Origin: a virus | Lineage: Duplodnaviria > Heunggongvirae > Uroviricota > Caudoviricetes | IMG/VR virus record: IMGVR_UViG_3300045988_053025 | Length of the DNA stretch: 22,965 bases | Strand: one strand, 5' to 3' | Part shown: in pieces, positions 19,340-22,965 of the stretch | How positions within the stretch are numbered: the first letter of the stretch is position 1 | How the letters are laid out: each line of letters begins with the position of its first letter | The notes under the pieces: model-generated | Database searches by the model: none | Seen by the model: the letters and a program-made list of their open reading frames with translations, nothing else | What the model was told of the DNA's origin: nothing | Translations under genes and position numbers: made by a program

Positions 19340-19903
19340 TTAGCATGATTCAGGGGAAACCCCAATATTAAATATGAGTGTCTCCCCTGAATCAGCATAA
19401 TAATGTAATATTATTGACTTACGTTGTTTTCTTGCTTCGTAGAATAAACGCTCTTGCGGCGATAATTTGTGAAAACTGCCGGATGCACAATATATGTTTT
19501 TTAACTTTTCGCGGGTTTCTTTTATTGTATCTTCTGATATGTATTTTAGGTATTTATCCGTATAGATGTTGCTACTATAAGAAATTAATGTTTTGCTGTT
19601 GTTGTGATGTATTGTATTTTTATCGTTGAAGTCTGTATTTTTATTTACTGTCATTAGGTTTTTAATGATTACATGTAATACAATAGTCTCCCCATCATCA
19701 ATTCCATATTTGATGTCATAGTCAGTATATTTATTTGTTATACCGCTTCCTGATAGCGGCACTATGTACTCTGAGAAAAATGAGTTTGCCGCGTGACTAT
19801 CAAGAGCAATAGCAGTTTGTTTGTGGTAAAAATAAAACAATATTGAGAGAGTCAAAATAATAGCGACGCCTAATGCAACCTTTAATATAGATATGGTTTT
19901 CAA
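19340..19903 (-). CDS. membrane protein in AT-rich accessory operon (possible superinfection-exclusion protein)
   Basis: Minus-strand ORF 19340..19951. Start preferred at TTG 19903-19901 with AAGGAG (reverse complement of 19911-19916) 7 nt upstream, giving an N-terminal transmembrane segment KTISILKVALGVAIILTLSILFYFY. Visibly AT-rich with Asn/Lys/Ile-rich codons. It occupies the slot where P22 carries sieA, as I recall. Confidence 0.5.
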   Translation of the reverse strand: MKTISILKVALGVAIILTLSILFYFYHKQTAIALDSHAANSFFSEYIVPLSGSGITNKYTDYDIKYGIDDGETIVLHVIIKNLMTVNKNTDFNDKNTIHHNNSKTLISYSSNIYTDKYLKYISEDTIKETREKLKNIYCASGSFHKLSPQERLFYEARKQRKSIILHYYADSGETLIFNIGVSPESC

Positions 19904-19993
19904 AATATCGCTCCTTGTTGTAACATACATCAGTAATGTGGCGTTTTTCAATTGTATTAAAGACGTGTAATATGTACACGCCTTTTGTTCTTC

Positions 19994-20425
19994 CTATTCA
20001 GGTATTTCAATTCCAAAACCATCTGCATCCCATGAGTTTTCACAGATGATGTAACCTAGTTCATTGAGCTTATTAAATGTTTTTTCAAAGATGATCTGGT
20101 AATCATTATCTGCAAGTGATTCCAGTTCAAGGTCATTAAGGTTTATATAAAAACTTGTATGTCCAAGTGTTATTTTCTTATTAATTTCATTAAAGGTTCT
20201 TTTGAAAATAATATTTGATATTTCATGTCGTGCATTGTTTGCAATGATTTTTGCTTCATAAGCAGAAATTACGTCATCTTCATGAATATCTTTCAGAAAG
20301 CTGGTGTCAAGACGTTGTACTATTTCAGCGTTCATTGATCGCTTATTGGCTTTTGCAGAAATTTCTATTTTTTCTTTTACTTCGACGGGAAGTCTGATCC
20401 TTAGTTGTGGATCTTCTCTGCTCAT
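19994..20425 (-). CDS. mnt: Mnt-like ribbon-helix-helix repressor with extended C-terminal domain
   Basis: From ATG 20425-20423 the N-terminus MSREDPQLRIRLPVEVKEKIEISAKANKRSMNAEIVQRL aligns well with the P22 Mnt N-terminus as I recall it (ARDDPHFNFRMPMEVREKLKFRAEANGRSMNSELLQIV). The protein is about 143 aa with a ~100-residue C-terminal extension of unknown function. Divergent from the arc-like gene. Confidence 0.6.
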   Translation of the reverse strand: MSREDPQLRIRLPVEVKEKIEISAKANKRSMNAEIVQRLDTSFLKDIHEDDVISAYEAKIIANNARHEISNIIFKRTFNEINKKITLGHTSFYINLNDLELESLADNDYQIIFEKTFNKLNELGYIICENSWDADGFGIEIPE

Positions 20426-20481
20426 GTTCTTCACCAAATATTGAGTTACTTGCAATGATTGAAGTATGCCTCACCGTGTGC

Positions 20482-20531: not shown

Positions 20532-20545
20532 TAAGGAGATATGAA

Positions 20546-20713
20546 ATGCAAAAAGCAAAAGAGATGTGTCAACGACGAGTTCGTTTTCCGGACGATGTGA
20601 AGTTAGCTATTGAAAGAAATGGCGAAAAAGAATGCCGAAAGTTCAATACAGAGATTATCTATCAGCTGAGGAAAGTGTATGGACTCACTGGTGAGAAGAA
20701 TAGCGTGGCATAA
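20546..20713 (+). CDS. arc: Arc-like ribbon-helix-helix repressor (55 aa)
   Basis: ATG 20546 with AAGGAG 7 nt upstream. The sequence RRVRFPDDVKLAIERNGEKECRKFNTEIIYQLRKVY resembles P22 Arc as I recall it. Small, directly upstream of the ant-like gene and divergent from the mnt-like gene. Confidence 0.55.
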   Translation: MQKAKEMCQRRVRFPDDVKLAIERNGEKECRKFNTEIIYQLRKVYGLTGEKNSVA

Positions 20714-20719
20714 AACAGC

Positions 20720-20752
20720 GAAGCCCCACGGTGGCCAGACCGTCAGGGCTTC
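20720..20752 (+). promoter_or_regulatory. second operator-like site inside a stem-loop between the arc-like and ant-like genes
   Basis: GAAGCCC (20720-20726) pairs with GGGCTTC (20746-20752), enclosing GCCCCACGGTGGCC, a repeat of the motif at 20517. Confidence 0.35.
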
Positions 20753-20785
20753 AGTATCGTAAAACTACGTATAGGAATTAACGAC

Positions 20786-21721
20786 ATGACGAGTATAGCA
20801 ACAGCAGTATCTACTATCAACGTGCCATTCCACGGCGCAGAGCTTTATGTTGTCAATCACAACGGCGAACCGTATACCCCAATGAAACCTATCGTTGAGG
20901 GAATGGGGCTAGACTGGAAATCTCAACATAAGAAGATTTCTCAACGCTTCTCGAAGGGTATGGTGGAAATCACCATACCTTCTGCCGGTGGGGTGCAAGC
21001 CATGATTTGTATGGCTTTACGAAAATTGGCAGCTTGGTTGAACAGCATCAGCCCTAACAAAGTCCGCCCTGAAATCCGCGACAAGGTAATCCAGTATCAG
21101 GAAGAGTGTGACGATGTGCTCTACGAGTACTGGACTAAAGGCCATGTGGTTAACCCACGCAAAGCTAAAAAGGCGTTGCCGGGTAAAATAACAACTGAAC
21201 AGCAGGAAGCCATTAAACAACTCGTCATGAGTCGCGGTCAGTCTCTGCCAAAAGAAAAACAGGCTAAGGCGATGATCACCATGTGGTCGTCACTGAAATC
21301 TCATTTTGGCTGTTCGTACAAAGAAATTGGTGAAGATCAATTTGCCGAAGCGTTGTCTCTTGTTGCTCGGGTTCCGCTTGAAGGGGAGTATCTCCCTGCT
21401 GGATCTGCATCAGAGAATGATGAAGTGGCAGTCAAGATGTTAGATGCGCTTCGTGAGGCAATTAAAACACAGACAAAATGTTATGGTTATCCATTGAAGC
21501 CAGGCTACCGCAGTCTGATTCATTCGCCGTCGGGTGTTCTCGGCCTGACGGAGAACTCACTGCTGATGAATCTGCTGAACCAGTTACAGGACGGGCACGA
21601 TGTATCGGGCGCGGCGGCGGAGCTGACCACCATGTTCTGCTACATCGTCGGTGTGAGCAAATGCCTGCGTGATATCCAGACGCACGCGGAATACATCAAC
21701 GACAAAGCAGGGTTCTTCTGA
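20786..21721 (+). CDS. ant: phage antirepressor (Ant-like)
   Basis: 311 aa; N-terminal VPFHGAELYVVNHNGEPYTPMKPIVEGMGLDW fits the antirepressor / Bro-N-type pattern as I recall it. Sits downstream of the arc-like gene in a P22 immI-like arrangement. Its 3' end is duplicated in inverted orientation at the right edge of the window. Confidence 0.6.
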   Translation: MTSIATAVSTINVPFHGAELYVVNHNGEPYTPMKPIVEGMGLDWKSQHKKISQRFSKGMVEITIPSAGGVQAMICMALRKLAAWLNSISPNKVRPEIRDKVIQYQEECDDVLYEYWTKGHVVNPRKAKKALPGKITTEQQEAIKQLVMSRGQSLPKEKQAKAMITMWSSLKSHFGCSYKEIGEDQFAEALSLVARVPLEGEYLPAGSASENDEVAVKMLDALREAIKTQTKCYGYPLKPGYRSLIHSPSGVLGLTENSLLMNLLNQLQDGHDVSGAAAELTTMFCYIVGVSKCLRDIQTHAEYINDKAGFF

Positions 21722-21745
21722 CAGAACGGCGGCACAGGGACGTGC
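21590..21745 (+). repeat. inverted repeat, left arm (3' end of ant plus ~24 bp downstream)
   Basis: Reverse complement of 22811..22965 matches 21590..21745 with 4 mismatches across the 132 coding nt, all synonymous, plus a short indel in the 3' flank. The repeat probably continues beyond the window. Confidence 0.85.
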
Positions 21746-21759
21746 AAAACGAAACTAGC

Positions 21760-21771
21760 GTGACATGTCAC
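21760..21771. repeat. 12-bp perfect palindrome GTGACATGTCAC, copy 3
   Basis: Read directly; immediately 5' of the terminator hairpin downstream of ant. Confidence 0.9.
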
Positions 21772-21796
21772 AGGCCGCTTTCGCGGCCTTGTTTTT
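21772..21796 (+). terminator. rho-independent terminator downstream of ant
   Basis: AGGCCGC-TTTC-GCGGCCT hairpin followed by TGTTTTT; overlaps the stop of the minus-strand small ORF. Confidence 0.65.
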
Positions 21797-21956
21797 AACG
21801 AATGCCACCGCCACCCGGGCGGGAATCCGCAGAACGCCCACCGCAGCGGGAGCCGTCAGCGGCAGTATCGCTGTCGTGCTGACAACGACCGGCAAAGGCC
21901 TGAGTTGAAGCTACCAGAGACAACAAAACGAACAGTGCAGCAAATGCTTTTTTCAT
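21795..21956 (-). CDS. small secreted peptide (53 aa) with signal peptide
   Basis: From ATG 21956-21954 the translation is MKKAFAALFVLLSLVASTQAFA|GRCQHDSDTAADGSRCGGRSADSRPGGGGIR: basic N-region, hydrophobic core, AxA cleavage motif, mature part with two Cys and a Gly-rich tail. The longer ORF-track start (GTG 22028) abuts a terminator and lacks an RBS. Confidence 0.4.
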   Translation of the reverse strand: MKKAFAALFVLLSLVASTQAFAGRCQHDSDTAADGSRCGGRSADSRPGGGGIR

Positions 21957-22028
21957 TGTGAAATTTCCATCTATAAGCCACCTCAATGTGGCGTCAATGA
22001 GTGTAGCACTGACTTTTGTTTCGTCCAC

Positions 22029-22049
22029 AAAAAAGCCCGCGCTGCGGGC
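22029..22049 (-). terminator. rho-independent terminator for the 210-aa gene (minus strand)
   Basis: GCCCGC-GCT-GCGGGC hairpin (22035-22049) followed on the minus strand by a 6-nt T run (plus-strand A run 22029-22034), 5 nt past the TAA at 22057-22055. Confidence 0.65.
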
Positions 22050-22054
22050 TTCTA

Positions 22055-22687
22055 TTAATGCAGTTTATCTTTGCTTATAACCAGTAGTCTGTGGGTATGC
22101 ACATCTTTATCACTGCCCCAACAGAAATCAGCCCACTGGCTATAGAAATCATCCCATGATGCCATGAAGCTAAGAGGTCTATCTTCTTCAGAGCCATCTG
22201 AAACGTATACATTATATCCTGGGGTGTTTATAGCCCAAGAAATCATTCTTTCCCAGAATCTTCTCCCATCGATTGTTTGTTGCTCATCAGATACAACGAT
22301 CGCATATTGCTCTAGGAAGAACTGAAAAAAAATCTGAGGCAAACCATGAACAGCACGGTCATGAATAACATTAGGCGTACGCCATACCATGATCTGCGTA
22401 CATGTTCTTTTGGCTTCGACGATATCTTCCCGAAAGATTAACTTAACCGCATACACCGTTTCTGGAGTATCGCTGGTAGTAATCATTCTGTAATGATCGC
22501 CATTACAAGATTTTACAAGGCGATAACCATAAGGTGTTGTGAATCCCGGAAGAACGAAATCAACCACACCTTTCGCTAAGTAGCTTTCGGTGTGACTAGT
22601 GTTCTTCTCAGACATGTTCAGTTTTCTATCGAAATCTGCTTCTGGGATAATGTATGGCATCGCTTTTCTTGTTGTATTTGTTCTCAT
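22055..22687 (-). CDS. hypothetical protein (210 aa), orphan accessory gene with own promoter and terminator
   Basis: ATG 22687-22685 with GGAGG 5 nt upstream on the minus strand, a candidate promoter upstream and an intrinsic terminator downstream. Trp/Phe/Asp-rich C-terminal half; no family recognised. Confidence 0.6.
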   Translation of the reverse strand: MRTNTTRKAMPYIIPEADFDRKLNMSEKNTSHTESYLAKGVVDFVLPGFTTPYGYRLVKSCNGDHYRMITTSDTPETVYAVKLIFREDIVEAKRTCTQIMVWRTPNVIHDRAVHGLPQIFFQFFLEQYAIVVSDEQQTIDGRRFWERMISWAINTPGYNVYVSDGSEEDRPLSFMASWDDFYSQWADFCWGSDKDVHTHRLLVISKDKLH

Positions 22688-22760
22688 TTCGTCCTCCCAT
22701 GTTTGGCTACAGGACGCGTTTTGAAGGGAAGATTAAAAATGCTTTCTTACCCTTGAGGTA

Positions 22761-22789
22761 ATAGTACGCTATTCACCCCCAGTCTGCAA
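22761..22789 (-). promoter_or_regulatory. candidate sigma70 promoter for the 210-aa gene
   Basis: On the minus strand: -35 TTGCAG (reverse complement of 22784-22789), 17-bp spacer, -10 TACTAT (reverse complement of 22761-22766), about 70 nt upstream of the ATG. Confidence 0.35.
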
Positions 22790-22833
22790 TCTGTACAGAA
22801 TTATTTAAAGGCACATCCCTGTGCCGCCGCCCG

Positions 22834-22965
22834 TCAGAAGAACCCTGCCTTGTCGTTGATGTACTCCGCGTGCGTCTGGATATCACGCAGGCATTTGCTC
22901 ACACCAACGATGTAGCAGAACATGGTGGTCAGCTCCGCCGCCGCGCCCGATACGTCGTGCCCGTC
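22834..22965 (-). CDS. antirepressor-like protein, C-terminal fragment (gene continues beyond window)
   Basis: Minus-strand frame encodes ...DGHDVSGAAAELTTMFCYIVGVSKCLRDIQTHAEYINDKAGFF then stop (reverse complement of 22834-22836), identical in protein sequence to the last 43 residues of the ant-like gene at 20786..21721. All four nucleotide differences are synonymous. Confidence 0.55.
   Translation of the reverse strand, partial: DGHDVSGAAAELTTMFCYIVGVSKCLRDIQTHAEYINDKAGFF

Follow-up and report, generated by a model that had tools for sequence, protein, structure and literature searches.

The DNA analysed here, a 22,965-nucleotide (nt) stretch of a Caudoviricetes virus (IMG/VR record IMGVR_UViG_3300045988_053025; hereafter the window), ends in an inverted repeat whose two arms are the 3' ends of antirepressor genes, and the question that it raises is why a phage should carry the same gene end twice, in opposite orientations, around a segment of accessory genes. 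We consider it probable that the repeat consists of the 3' ends of a converging pair of antirepressor genes, both intact, and that the slot between them has been inverted and swapped by recombination within the module that the genes share. The host element would be a temperate podovirus prophage of the TL-2011b/SPC32H kind, TL-2011b being the closest isolated phage to the window. The region matches several complete Escherichia coli chromosomes at 99.5% identity, among them that of strain 07_3636 (NZ_CP074928, locus L001), in which the locus could be followed past the window edge.

A repeat search of the window gave two arms of 133 nt, at 21590-21722 and 22833-22965, that are 97% complementary and separated by a spacer of 1,110 nt. 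No second inverted repeat longer than 32 nt was present in the window, the runner-up having 72% over 32 nt. A plus-strand open reading frame (ORF) ends in the left arm, and a minus-strand ORF that leaves the window ends in the right arm. The coding part of each arm amounts to 132 nt (43 sense codons and the stop codon), in which the arms differ at exactly four positions, 21601, 21649, 21691 and 21706. Each difference is at a third codon position and synonymous, so that both encoded C-termini are identical; as ∼22% of the possible single-base changes in the arm codons are synonymous, the chance of finding four out of four is low (P ∼0.002). Both arms continue into a common 3' flank of about 24 nt, in which one indel and a few mismatches occur, and arm and flank together align over 156 nt at 94.9%. 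Repeat search and alignment therefore confirmed what a first-pass annotation, made from the sequence alone, had described, namely, the recurrence of ∼132 coding nt and ∼24 nt of flank at the right edge, with four synonymous coding differences and identical C-termini.

The left limit at 21590 merely reflects the window edge, and the true homology starts at 21495. The left arm thus covers 21495-21745 on the plus strand, with the module coding sequence at 21495-21718, the stop codon at 21719-21721, and the ∼24-nt 3' flank including GGCACAGGGACGTGC (21731-21745), while the right arm (22811-22965, minus strand) comprises the 3' flank, the stop codon (22834-22836), and the last 43 codons of the right-hand antirepressor gene, where the window edge cuts it. 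The rightward extension that had been proposed as a check, run in L001, gave a repeat of about 250 to 270 nt (270 nt at 91% in an ungapped alignment and ∼254 nt at 95% when gaps are allowed), and 5' of the homology start the two antirepressor genes are unrelated sequence. The window ant lacks one GAA (Glu) codon at 21587-21592 and reads ...LQDGHD..., where all 28 other arms compared have ...LQEDGHD... or ...LQDDGHD....

The left gene, ant (20786-21721, plus strand), encodes 311 amino acids (aa) from its first ATG, the RefSeq start in a near-identical genome being a GTG at 20822. Its product carries P22_AR_N at residues 12-121 (Pfam PF10547, E 6e-45) and the shared module at residues ∼237-311, and P22_AR_C is absent, since a Pfam scan at E ≤ 0.01 returned P22_AR_N alone. 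The right-hand gene is, in near-identical genomes such as L001, an intact 228-aa ORF combining a Bro-N domain (Pfam, E 4e-20) with the same module. Rfam places a C4 RNA (L001 9172-9258; 77 bits, gathering score 45) and an isrK RNA (L001 9277-9353; 74.7 bits, gathering score 50) 5' of this gene on the same strand, and an isrK and C4 leader stands directly 5' of the Bro-N/AntA/ORF6N-type gene in 15 of 15 loci (L001 and 14 others).

The right-hand copy might instead be a recent inverted duplication of the ant end, now decaying and functionless, and the high identity of the arms is what such an event would leave behind. We regard this as scarcely credible. The right gene is a full-length ORF that has a separate N-terminal domain (Bro-N) and a separate leader (isrK/C4), the four differences in the window are all synonymous, and 29 arms contain 32 synonymous versus 4 nonsynonymous variable sites, with 20 of the 29 encoding an identical protein. 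A frameshifted right-hand gene was found in only 1 of the 15 sampled loci (L012), and the single-arm form with the right gene only is the commoner one, which suggests that it was the left gene, if anything, that acquired the module. The variable sites confirm purifying selection on the module. The earlier description of two intact paralogs under purifying selection consequently stands for intactness and for selection; the genes are not paralogous over their whole length, as they share the C-terminal module and the ∼24-nt flank only.

Within genomes, the left and right arms are as similar (95.7%) as arms from different genomes (95.7%), and the polymorphism is mosaic. Concerted evolution of the arms by gene conversion within a genome was rejected on these figures, and since the two identities are equal, the arms appear to form one recombining pool.

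The shared module is ∼75 aa long, and Pfam has no model for it. Both copies match chain E of Protein Data Bank (PDB) entry 5D50, an 86-aa 'Anti-repressor protein' of Salmonella phage SPC32H, with residues 231-306 of the ant product (E 2.6e-12) and residues 147-223 of the right-hand protein (E 1.1e-13); a profile of the module aligned over the full domain length, positions 3-84 against chain residues 2-83 (E 9.8e-31). The SPC32H Rep-Ant antirepression system (PDB 5D50) was reportedly described by Kim & Ryu in 2013 and by Kim et al. in 2016. According to PMC9638917 and PMC9986798, SPC32H Ant forms a tetramer, which binds Rep, the repressor, and takes the Rep tetramer apart. Rep itself has full-length homologues in TL-2011b, where it is the main repressor gp10 (E 6.6e-42), and in the 99.5%-identical prophage, as a 194-aa helix-turn-helix protein (E 4e-42 against 5D50_A); the window stops short of the early region, so that Rep is known from these two sources. 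Because a matching Rep-type repressor is encoded by the near-identical prophage, the module is best read as a putative effector domain that would act on the phage's own repressor.

The likeness to SPC32H goes further than the domain, which covers the full 86-aa Ant, and the full-length Rep homologue (E about 1e-42), as the same locus also holds a direct 85-aa Ant orthologue with a LexA-box consensus. It differs in that the Ant domain forms the C-terminal part of 311- and 228-aa proteins with P22_AR_N or Bro-N, and in that the controls of these two genes are RNA based and of the immunity I type (sar or isrK/C4), with no LexA box at the right-hand gene in L001. Overall, the one C-terminal module was found joined to four N-terminal Pfam domains, P22_AR_N, Bro-N, AntA, and ORF6N. 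At the right-hand position the N-terminal domain varies among loci (Bro-N, AntA, or ORF6N) while the module stays at least 93% identical. A protein search with the 81-aa module returned short standalone proteins only and no fusion proteins; the N-terminal partners were therefore drawn from genome annotation and Pfam scans. Domain shuffling in Bro-N/KilA-N/AntA 'antirepressor' proteins is said to have been described by Iyer, Koonin & Aravind in 2002, and a single C-terminal module with four N-terminal partners fits that pattern. Here, however, the shuffling is seen at more than 93% nucleotide identity within one species, with the crossover mapped to the module start, and the C-terminal partner is tied to a solved antirepressor structure.

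Between the arms, the first-pass annotation had placed ∼1.1 kb with two minus-strand genes, encoding a 210-aa protein and a 53-aa secreted peptide, each with expression signals of its own. Both genes are present, and candidate signals could be located for each. Read along the cargo strand, the order is the right-gene stop codon, a flank palindrome, a promoter-like element, the 210-aa ORF, terminator T1, a second promoter-like element, the 53-aa gene, terminator T2 with an adjoining palindrome, and finally the flank and stop codon of ant. In a comparison with TL-2011b and 13 other loci, everything but the ORF or ORFs between the first promoter and T1 was conserved.

The constant upstream border of this slot (22747-22832, minus strand) contains the promoter-like sequence TTGCAG, 17 nt, TACTAT (22761-22789), followed by TACCTCAAGGGTAA (22747-22760). 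It is preceded, within the shared flank, by the palindrome GGCACA-GGGA-TGTGCC (22810-22825), which was considered as a structured RNA and rejected, as it folds no better than shuffled sequence (z -0.11). The same border sequence stands 5' of at least five unrelated cargo types, and two loci (L007 and L011) have other promoters and share the flank alone. T1 (22028-22050, minus strand; AGCCCGC-AGC-GCGGGCT and TTTTTTG) lies directly 3' of the cargo stop codon and is the constant downstream border, conserved beside different cargo; its fold has a z of -3.27, and none of 200 shuffles was as stable. The 53-aa gene (21795-21956, minus strand), a constant member of the cassette, follows a promoter-like element of its own (21970-21997, minus strand; TTGACG, 16 nt, TATAGA, read from the sequence). 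Its product matches phrog_14503, a 'membrane associated protein' of the moron category (E 2e-40), and has a putative signal peptide, MKKAFAALFVLLSLVASTQAFA, also read from the sequence, followed by a 31-aa Gly/Arg-rich part with two Cys residues; protein WP_000708858.1 is identical in many loci. Next to ant, the 12-nt palindrome GTGACATGTCAC (21760-21771) and T2 (21772-21796; hairpin AGGCCGC-TTTC-GCGGCCT and TGTTTTT, from a terminator scan of L001) form a plus-strand element (21760-21796) that moves with the cassette in flipped loci. T2 is predicted to end the transcription of whichever antirepressor gene converges on the cassette.

These terminators bear on the idea that the repeat acts at the RNA level, read-through from one gene producing RNA antisense to the 3' end of the other, or a long hairpin, with mutual inhibition as the outcome. 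Convergent genes with ∼250 nt of near-identical 3' sequence would lend themselves to this, and in the window orientation just a weak hairpin lies between the right-gene stop codon and the cargo promoter. However, T1 and T2 are strong terminators that lie between the genes in both orientations, and the second arm is absent from most loci, which makes a function of this kind very unlikely.

The content of the slot is where related phages differ. Comparing cargo at this junction among E. coli prophages, as had been proposed, gave at least seven types: the 210-aa protein of the window; a YafO_toxin-like protein with a 59-aa partner; a DUF4760 protein; a DUF2335 protein with a 108-aa protein; 251- and 69-aa proteins, to which one locus adds a 167-aa gene; 110- and 62-aa proteins; and 55- and 146/147-aa proteins. 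Pfam recognizes only YafO_toxin and DUF4760 among them, and known defense systems gave no PADLOC match among 12 cargo proteins. The 210-aa protein (22055-22687, minus strand), for which a GNAT-like fold is a weak lead, is a member of phrog_1349, a family conserved in phages of Enterobacterales, and so is not the orphan that it had at first been called. GC content follows the same mosaic, at ∼56% for the shared module and the 53-aa gene and ∼42% for the cargo. With a promoter-like element and T1 of its own and a content that differs among related phages, the cargo has the features expected of a moron; in a classical moron, however, the promoter and terminator travel with the gene, whereas here both stay and the ORF changes.

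Whether the slot also occurs in the opposite orientation was examined by using a simulated product of recombination between the arms as a query against 5,426 complete E. coli genomes. In strain SCU-387 (L003), a single unbroken match covered 100% of the simulated flipped junction. The left flank and ant are as in the window, followed by the identical 210- and 53-aa proteins on the plus strand and then by a converging AntA-type gene. L001 7092-8670 aligns in reverse to L003 8919-7342 at 98.7%, and the switch from gene-specific to cassette-specific alignment falls inside the arms. With a junction query independent of cargo, 33 of the 36 genomes with this ant type diverge from the query as expected for the window orientation and 3 are flipped, two of which span the flipped junction while the third, ETEC4085, is flipped with a divergent promoter. 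Both orientations were found again in a second lineage, in which both flanking genes are of the isrK/C4 type (UTME-14 versus DS566-1). A different rearrangement is seen in ETEC1749 (L004 5380-6970), where one cassette stands behind each antirepressor gene, the two facing each other and joined at a single shared T1 hairpin, AGCCCGCGCTGCGGGCT, with loss of the 53-aa gene; this suggests that T1 itself can act as a recombination joint between cassettes of opposite orientation. The proposal that the inverted homology is a substrate for inversion or module exchange is thus borne out by both orientations, for example, in SCU-387 and ETEC4085, and by breakpoints in the arms. With an intact minus-strand gene (228 aa) and with cargo and orientation that both vary among related genomes, neither finding that could have refuted the first-pass annotation was made.

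Short-read assemblers can misorient segments between inverted repeats, and the flipped versions might on that account be artifacts of a 250-nt repeat, with only one orientation being real. We think this highly improbable. Flipped loci occur in several independent 'complete genome' assemblies from different laboratories and hosts and with different cargo (SCU-387, ETEC4085, ETEC1749, and DS566-1), to which two further DS566-1-like matches, MS10858 and AREA_R504, can be added as search rows only. SCU-387 and DS566-1 agree in the flipped configuration at 99.9% over 6.6 kb. Moreover, ordinary read pairs, and any long read, will reach across a repeat of 250 nt whose spacer is 1.1 kb.

If the flip is real, it could be programmed, as in phase variation, moving the cargo between the isrK/C4 and the Mnt/Arc/sar operons, changing which transcript meets T2, and giving mixed populations. 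Both orientations in nature and breakpoints in the arms are compatible with such a switch. In addition, in either orientation the cargo lies downstream of and codirectional with one antirepressor gene while T2 faces the other, so that a flip would plausibly change read-through. Against this, neither an invertase gene nor any other recombinase is annotated within ∼6 kb on either side in L001 or L003, the prophage integrase being ∼30 kb away. Of the 36 genomes with this ant type only 3 are flipped, the orientation is the same in all of six closely related strains, the cargo has a promoter and terminator of its own, and most cassette-bearing loci have a single arm and are unable to flip. The arms, too, are coding sequences of ∼250 nt and not short crossover sites. 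A programmed switch is therefore improbable.

The comparison with known inversion systems leads in the same direction. The crossover sites of the Gin/Cin/Hin/Min systems and of shufflons are ∼26 to 34 bp long. The present locus resembles these systems in that a segment between inverted repeats occurs in both orientations in a phage genome, and differs in having no invertase gene nearby, in having ∼250-nt protein-coding arms along which the crossover signatures are spread, and in that the inversion alters no coding sequence and flipped forms are rare. Given that no invertase is near and that the arms are long and protein coding, the locus lies outside the site-specific inversion systems, and homologous recombination of an incidental kind seems to account for the flip.

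At least one true inversion between the arms is needed to account for both orientations. SCU-387 itself need not be a direct product of one, since from the first arm bases onward it is 99.9% identical to DS566-1 over 6,578 nt, while its left part matches the window type at 97.6%. This is most simply explained by a collinear recombination between a window-type phage and an already flipped lineage, with the crossover at the module start. The machinery could be the phage's own, as genes for a RecT-family recombinase and for a PD-(D/E)XK exonuclease lie near that of the Rep-type repressor in the 07_3636 prophage (L018 19374-22263), which makes the two enzymes plausible catalysts. This prophage is integrated next to guaA. 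In UTME-14, IS3-family elements are inserted beside the left antirepressor gene (L005 1-4620), and in OkiPb01676 (L012 5691-6515) the right-hand BRO-family gene is frameshifted and the 53-aa gene truncated, both signs of decay.

Cargo exchange is a separate matter from inversion. A cassette query matched 539 records (536 genomes), and in a sample of 60 spread over them, about two-thirds of the E. coli loci match the 53-aa side only, without the adjoining shared module. In the two that were inspected, Ec55 and strain 4/0, the slot and the 53-aa gene come after the only antirepressor gene, and the left immunity I unit is absent. The same cargo types occur in such single-arm loci, and outside E. 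coli, with one genome taken per species, five loci had the module and none had a convergent second arm. As most slot-bearing loci have one arm, cargo is exchanged independently of the inverted repeat. Of the suggestion that the repeat drives exchange of what it flanks, inversion and crossover in the arms were upheld, and the dependence of cargo exchange on the repeat was not.

The hotspot of accessory-gene swapping that the first-pass annotation proposed is likewise real, given at least seven cargo types, and was already known in outline as the 'ant moron' of P22-like phages, a variable region with 'ten types in sixteen genomes' (Villafane, Casjens et al. 2008, PMC2629481). Map position (from the ejection-protein to the tailspike genes), independently expressed genes on the opposite strand, and varying content agree with that description, which is silent on a shared antirepressor module, inversion, or a fixed promoter and terminator and uses the word 'inverted' 0 times (PMC2629481). 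The virion genes of the 07_3636 prophage, among them those for a T7 gp14-family core protein and a capsid staple protein, indicate an epsilon15/SPC32H-like podovirus and not a strictly P22-like one. The locus can therefore be regarded as the counterpart of that region in podoviruses of a related group, between which and the P22-like phages DNA is exchanged.

Taken together, an account of the locus can be proposed. Each antirepressor gene ends in a complete SPC32H-Ant-type domain fused to an unrelated N-terminal domain, the left gene with Mnt-like, Arc-like, and sar elements and the right gene with its isrK and C4 leader. The arms would be kept nearly identical by purifying selection on the module, presumably since it must fit the phage's own Rep, and by exchange between phages through homologous recombination. 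The slot belongs to the right-hand unit, as a constant promoter, exchangeable ORF or ORFs, T1, the 53-aa gene, and T2. Recombination in the module would have inverted it at least once, and ordinary collinear crossover in the module would have swapped gene halves and cargo between phages. The sequences show the anatomy, the homologies, the two orientations, the range of cargo, and the location of crossover points in the arms; we infer from them that the module binds the Rep of this phage, that RecA or the phage RecT system is the catalyst, and that the flip is not programmed but incidental.

Several points weigh against this proposal. The module shares only ∼40% identity with either SPC32H Ant or the 85-aa Ant that the prophage itself encodes and might, on that account, target a different repressor; modeled by itself, the module is helical, at modest confidence (pLDDT 71, pTM 0.38), and Rep binding by the module of either gene is a prediction from homology. 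The 5' half of the right-hand gene and its control RNAs lie outside the window, in which the intactness of this gene cannot be read, and are taken from 99.5%-identical genomes. The promoters are consensus matches only, and a generic promoter scan was not enriched over shuffles. Finally, the orientation calls rest on public assemblies, and with SCU-387 best explained as a collinear recombinant, the count of independent inversions could be one.

The left unit has, in its predicted elements, the layout of P22 immunity I, that is, a divergent Mnt-like gene, an Arc-like gene, a sar RNA, and ant. The Mnt-like repressor gene (19994-20455, minus strand) is a 153-aa ORF of the Arc family of ribbon-helix-helix proteins (Pfam Arc PF03869, E 1.2e-14), called as 143 aa and annotated as 'Arc family DNA-binding protein' by RefSeq in L001, and is divergent from the arc-like and ant genes. 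The small Arc-like gene (20543-20713, plus strand) directly 5' of ant encodes 56 aa and has Arc-like matches from PHROG only (phrog_228, Arc-like repressor, E 2e-5); protein WP_001167931.1 is identical in most sampled window-type loci. Between it and ant, an antisense RNA of the sar type (20717-20784, minus strand) was found with Rfam RF00262 at a marginal 44.8 bits (gathering score 43), exactly where it is expected. An Rfam scan also placed sar 5' of 10 of 11 intact P22_AR_N-type ant genes in loci L002 to L015, the match in L015 being below threshold. The unit follows the P22 order and lies, as in P22, between the ejection-protein and tailspike genes, and the N-terminal part of ant is 94% identical to CUS-3 ant. 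Unlike in P22, ant ends in the SPC32H-type module instead of P22_AR_C and the virion genes look epsilon15/SPC32H-like; and whereas in CUS-3 the tailspike gene comes after ant, here it is the converging second antirepressor gene that does.

The right unit, with isrK and its terminator followed by C4 and the antirepressor gene, resembles the isrK-orf45-anrP operon of Gifsy-1 and c4-icd-ant of P1/P7. In Gifsy-1, the arrangement is PisrK-isrK-orf45-anrP, with isrK driving the downstream antirepressor-like gene (PMC4825925). The operon here differs by running on into the promoter-cargo-terminator slot and the gene for the secreted peptide. LexA control of the right-hand gene was considered and rejected. 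Its 390-nt leader in L001 contains no CTGT-N8-ACAG box, and the one such box in L001, in a search that took in the last ∼900 nt of the mnt-like/arc-like/ant upstream region, belongs to the neighboring 85-aa Ant gene.

This third Ant-domain gene (L001 10268-10562) lies outside the window, ∼1.1 kb further right, at a place about 2.3 kb past the right window edge and beside the tailspike gene. It matches 5D50_E at E 2.2e-46 and is thus directly orthologous to SPC32H Ant, and a perfect CTGT-N8-ACAG LexA-box consensus stands 21 to 22 nt 5' of it in 15 of 15 loci, so that it is presumably SOS controlled. The locus thus holds three Ant-domain genes under three predicted kinds of control. A bolder interpretation, which we hold to be unlikely, would make it an 'anti-immunity hub', in which three Rep-directed Ant-domain genes respond to three inputs (LexA/SOS, Mnt/Arc/sar, and isrK/C4), the cassette is a recombinational toggle that assigns a plug-in accessory gene (a toxin, or a candidate defense or modification enzyme) to either antirepressor operon, and the border hairpins (flank, T1, and T2) serve as orientation-independent joints. 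Some loci only (L001 9518-10246, plus strand, and also L005 and L007) have a 242-aa gene with a weak Stc1-domain match (E 2.6e-4) in the space from the isrK promoter region to the gene for the 85-aa Ant, which marks a second variable position in the region.

P22 immunity I, isrK/C4 antirepressor operons, SPC32H Rep-Ant, morons, and Bro-N/KilA-N domain shuffling are all known already. Within the reach of the literature searches, four features appear not to have been described: an SPC32H-type Ant domain as the C-terminal part of fusion proteins; that domain in three genes under three controls at one locus; a slot with a fixed promoter and terminator and changing ORFs; and natural flips with breakpoints in a shared coding module. 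Literature searches on inversion between antirepressor genes returned nothing specific. The locus extends the known mosaicism of phages and does not overturn current views of it.

It does link vaguely annotated 'antirepressor' proteins of the Bro-N, AntA, ORF6N, and P22_AR_N types to the structurally characterized SPC32H Ant effector and its cognate Rep, and thereby points, concretely and in a testable way, to the part of these proteins that would be the active one. One prophage can, on this reading, hold the same effector domain under three controls. The locus also offers a natural example of a conserved coding module acting as a recombination linker, which swaps regulatory and N-terminal halves and inverts DNA where two copies converge. 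In practical terms, the slot, with at least seven cargos including a YafO-like toxin pair, DUF4760 and DUF2335 proteins, a GNAT-like protein, and small gene pairs, is a place to seek prophage toxin and defense genes.

Further features of the window deserve mention. Directly 3' of the last ejection-protein gene, where P22 has sieA, a 203-aa ORF (19340-19951, minus strand) lies in a very AT-rich stretch (30 to 33% GC); it belongs to phrog_8033, has a weak TIR-like (ThsB) PADLOC match (E 0.006), and may be an exclusion or defense gene. The palindrome GTGACATGTCAC next to T2 has three exact copies in the window (1325-1336, 3590-3601, and 21760-21771) and one copy with a single mismatch (6677-6688), with 0.04 expected. 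All exact copies are intergenic, one preceding the small terminase gene, one following that for the large terminase, by a minus-strand insert, and one following ant, and two of the three directly adjoin terminator hairpins. The CUS-3 'boundary sequences' do not account for this palindrome, which could be a regulator site or a module-boundary sequence. The insert between the large terminase and portal genes (3606-4300) consists of a minus-strand 139-aa ORF (3606-4025) and a tRNA-Arg(tct) gene (4224-4300, minus strand) and is a further opposite-strand insert in the late operon.

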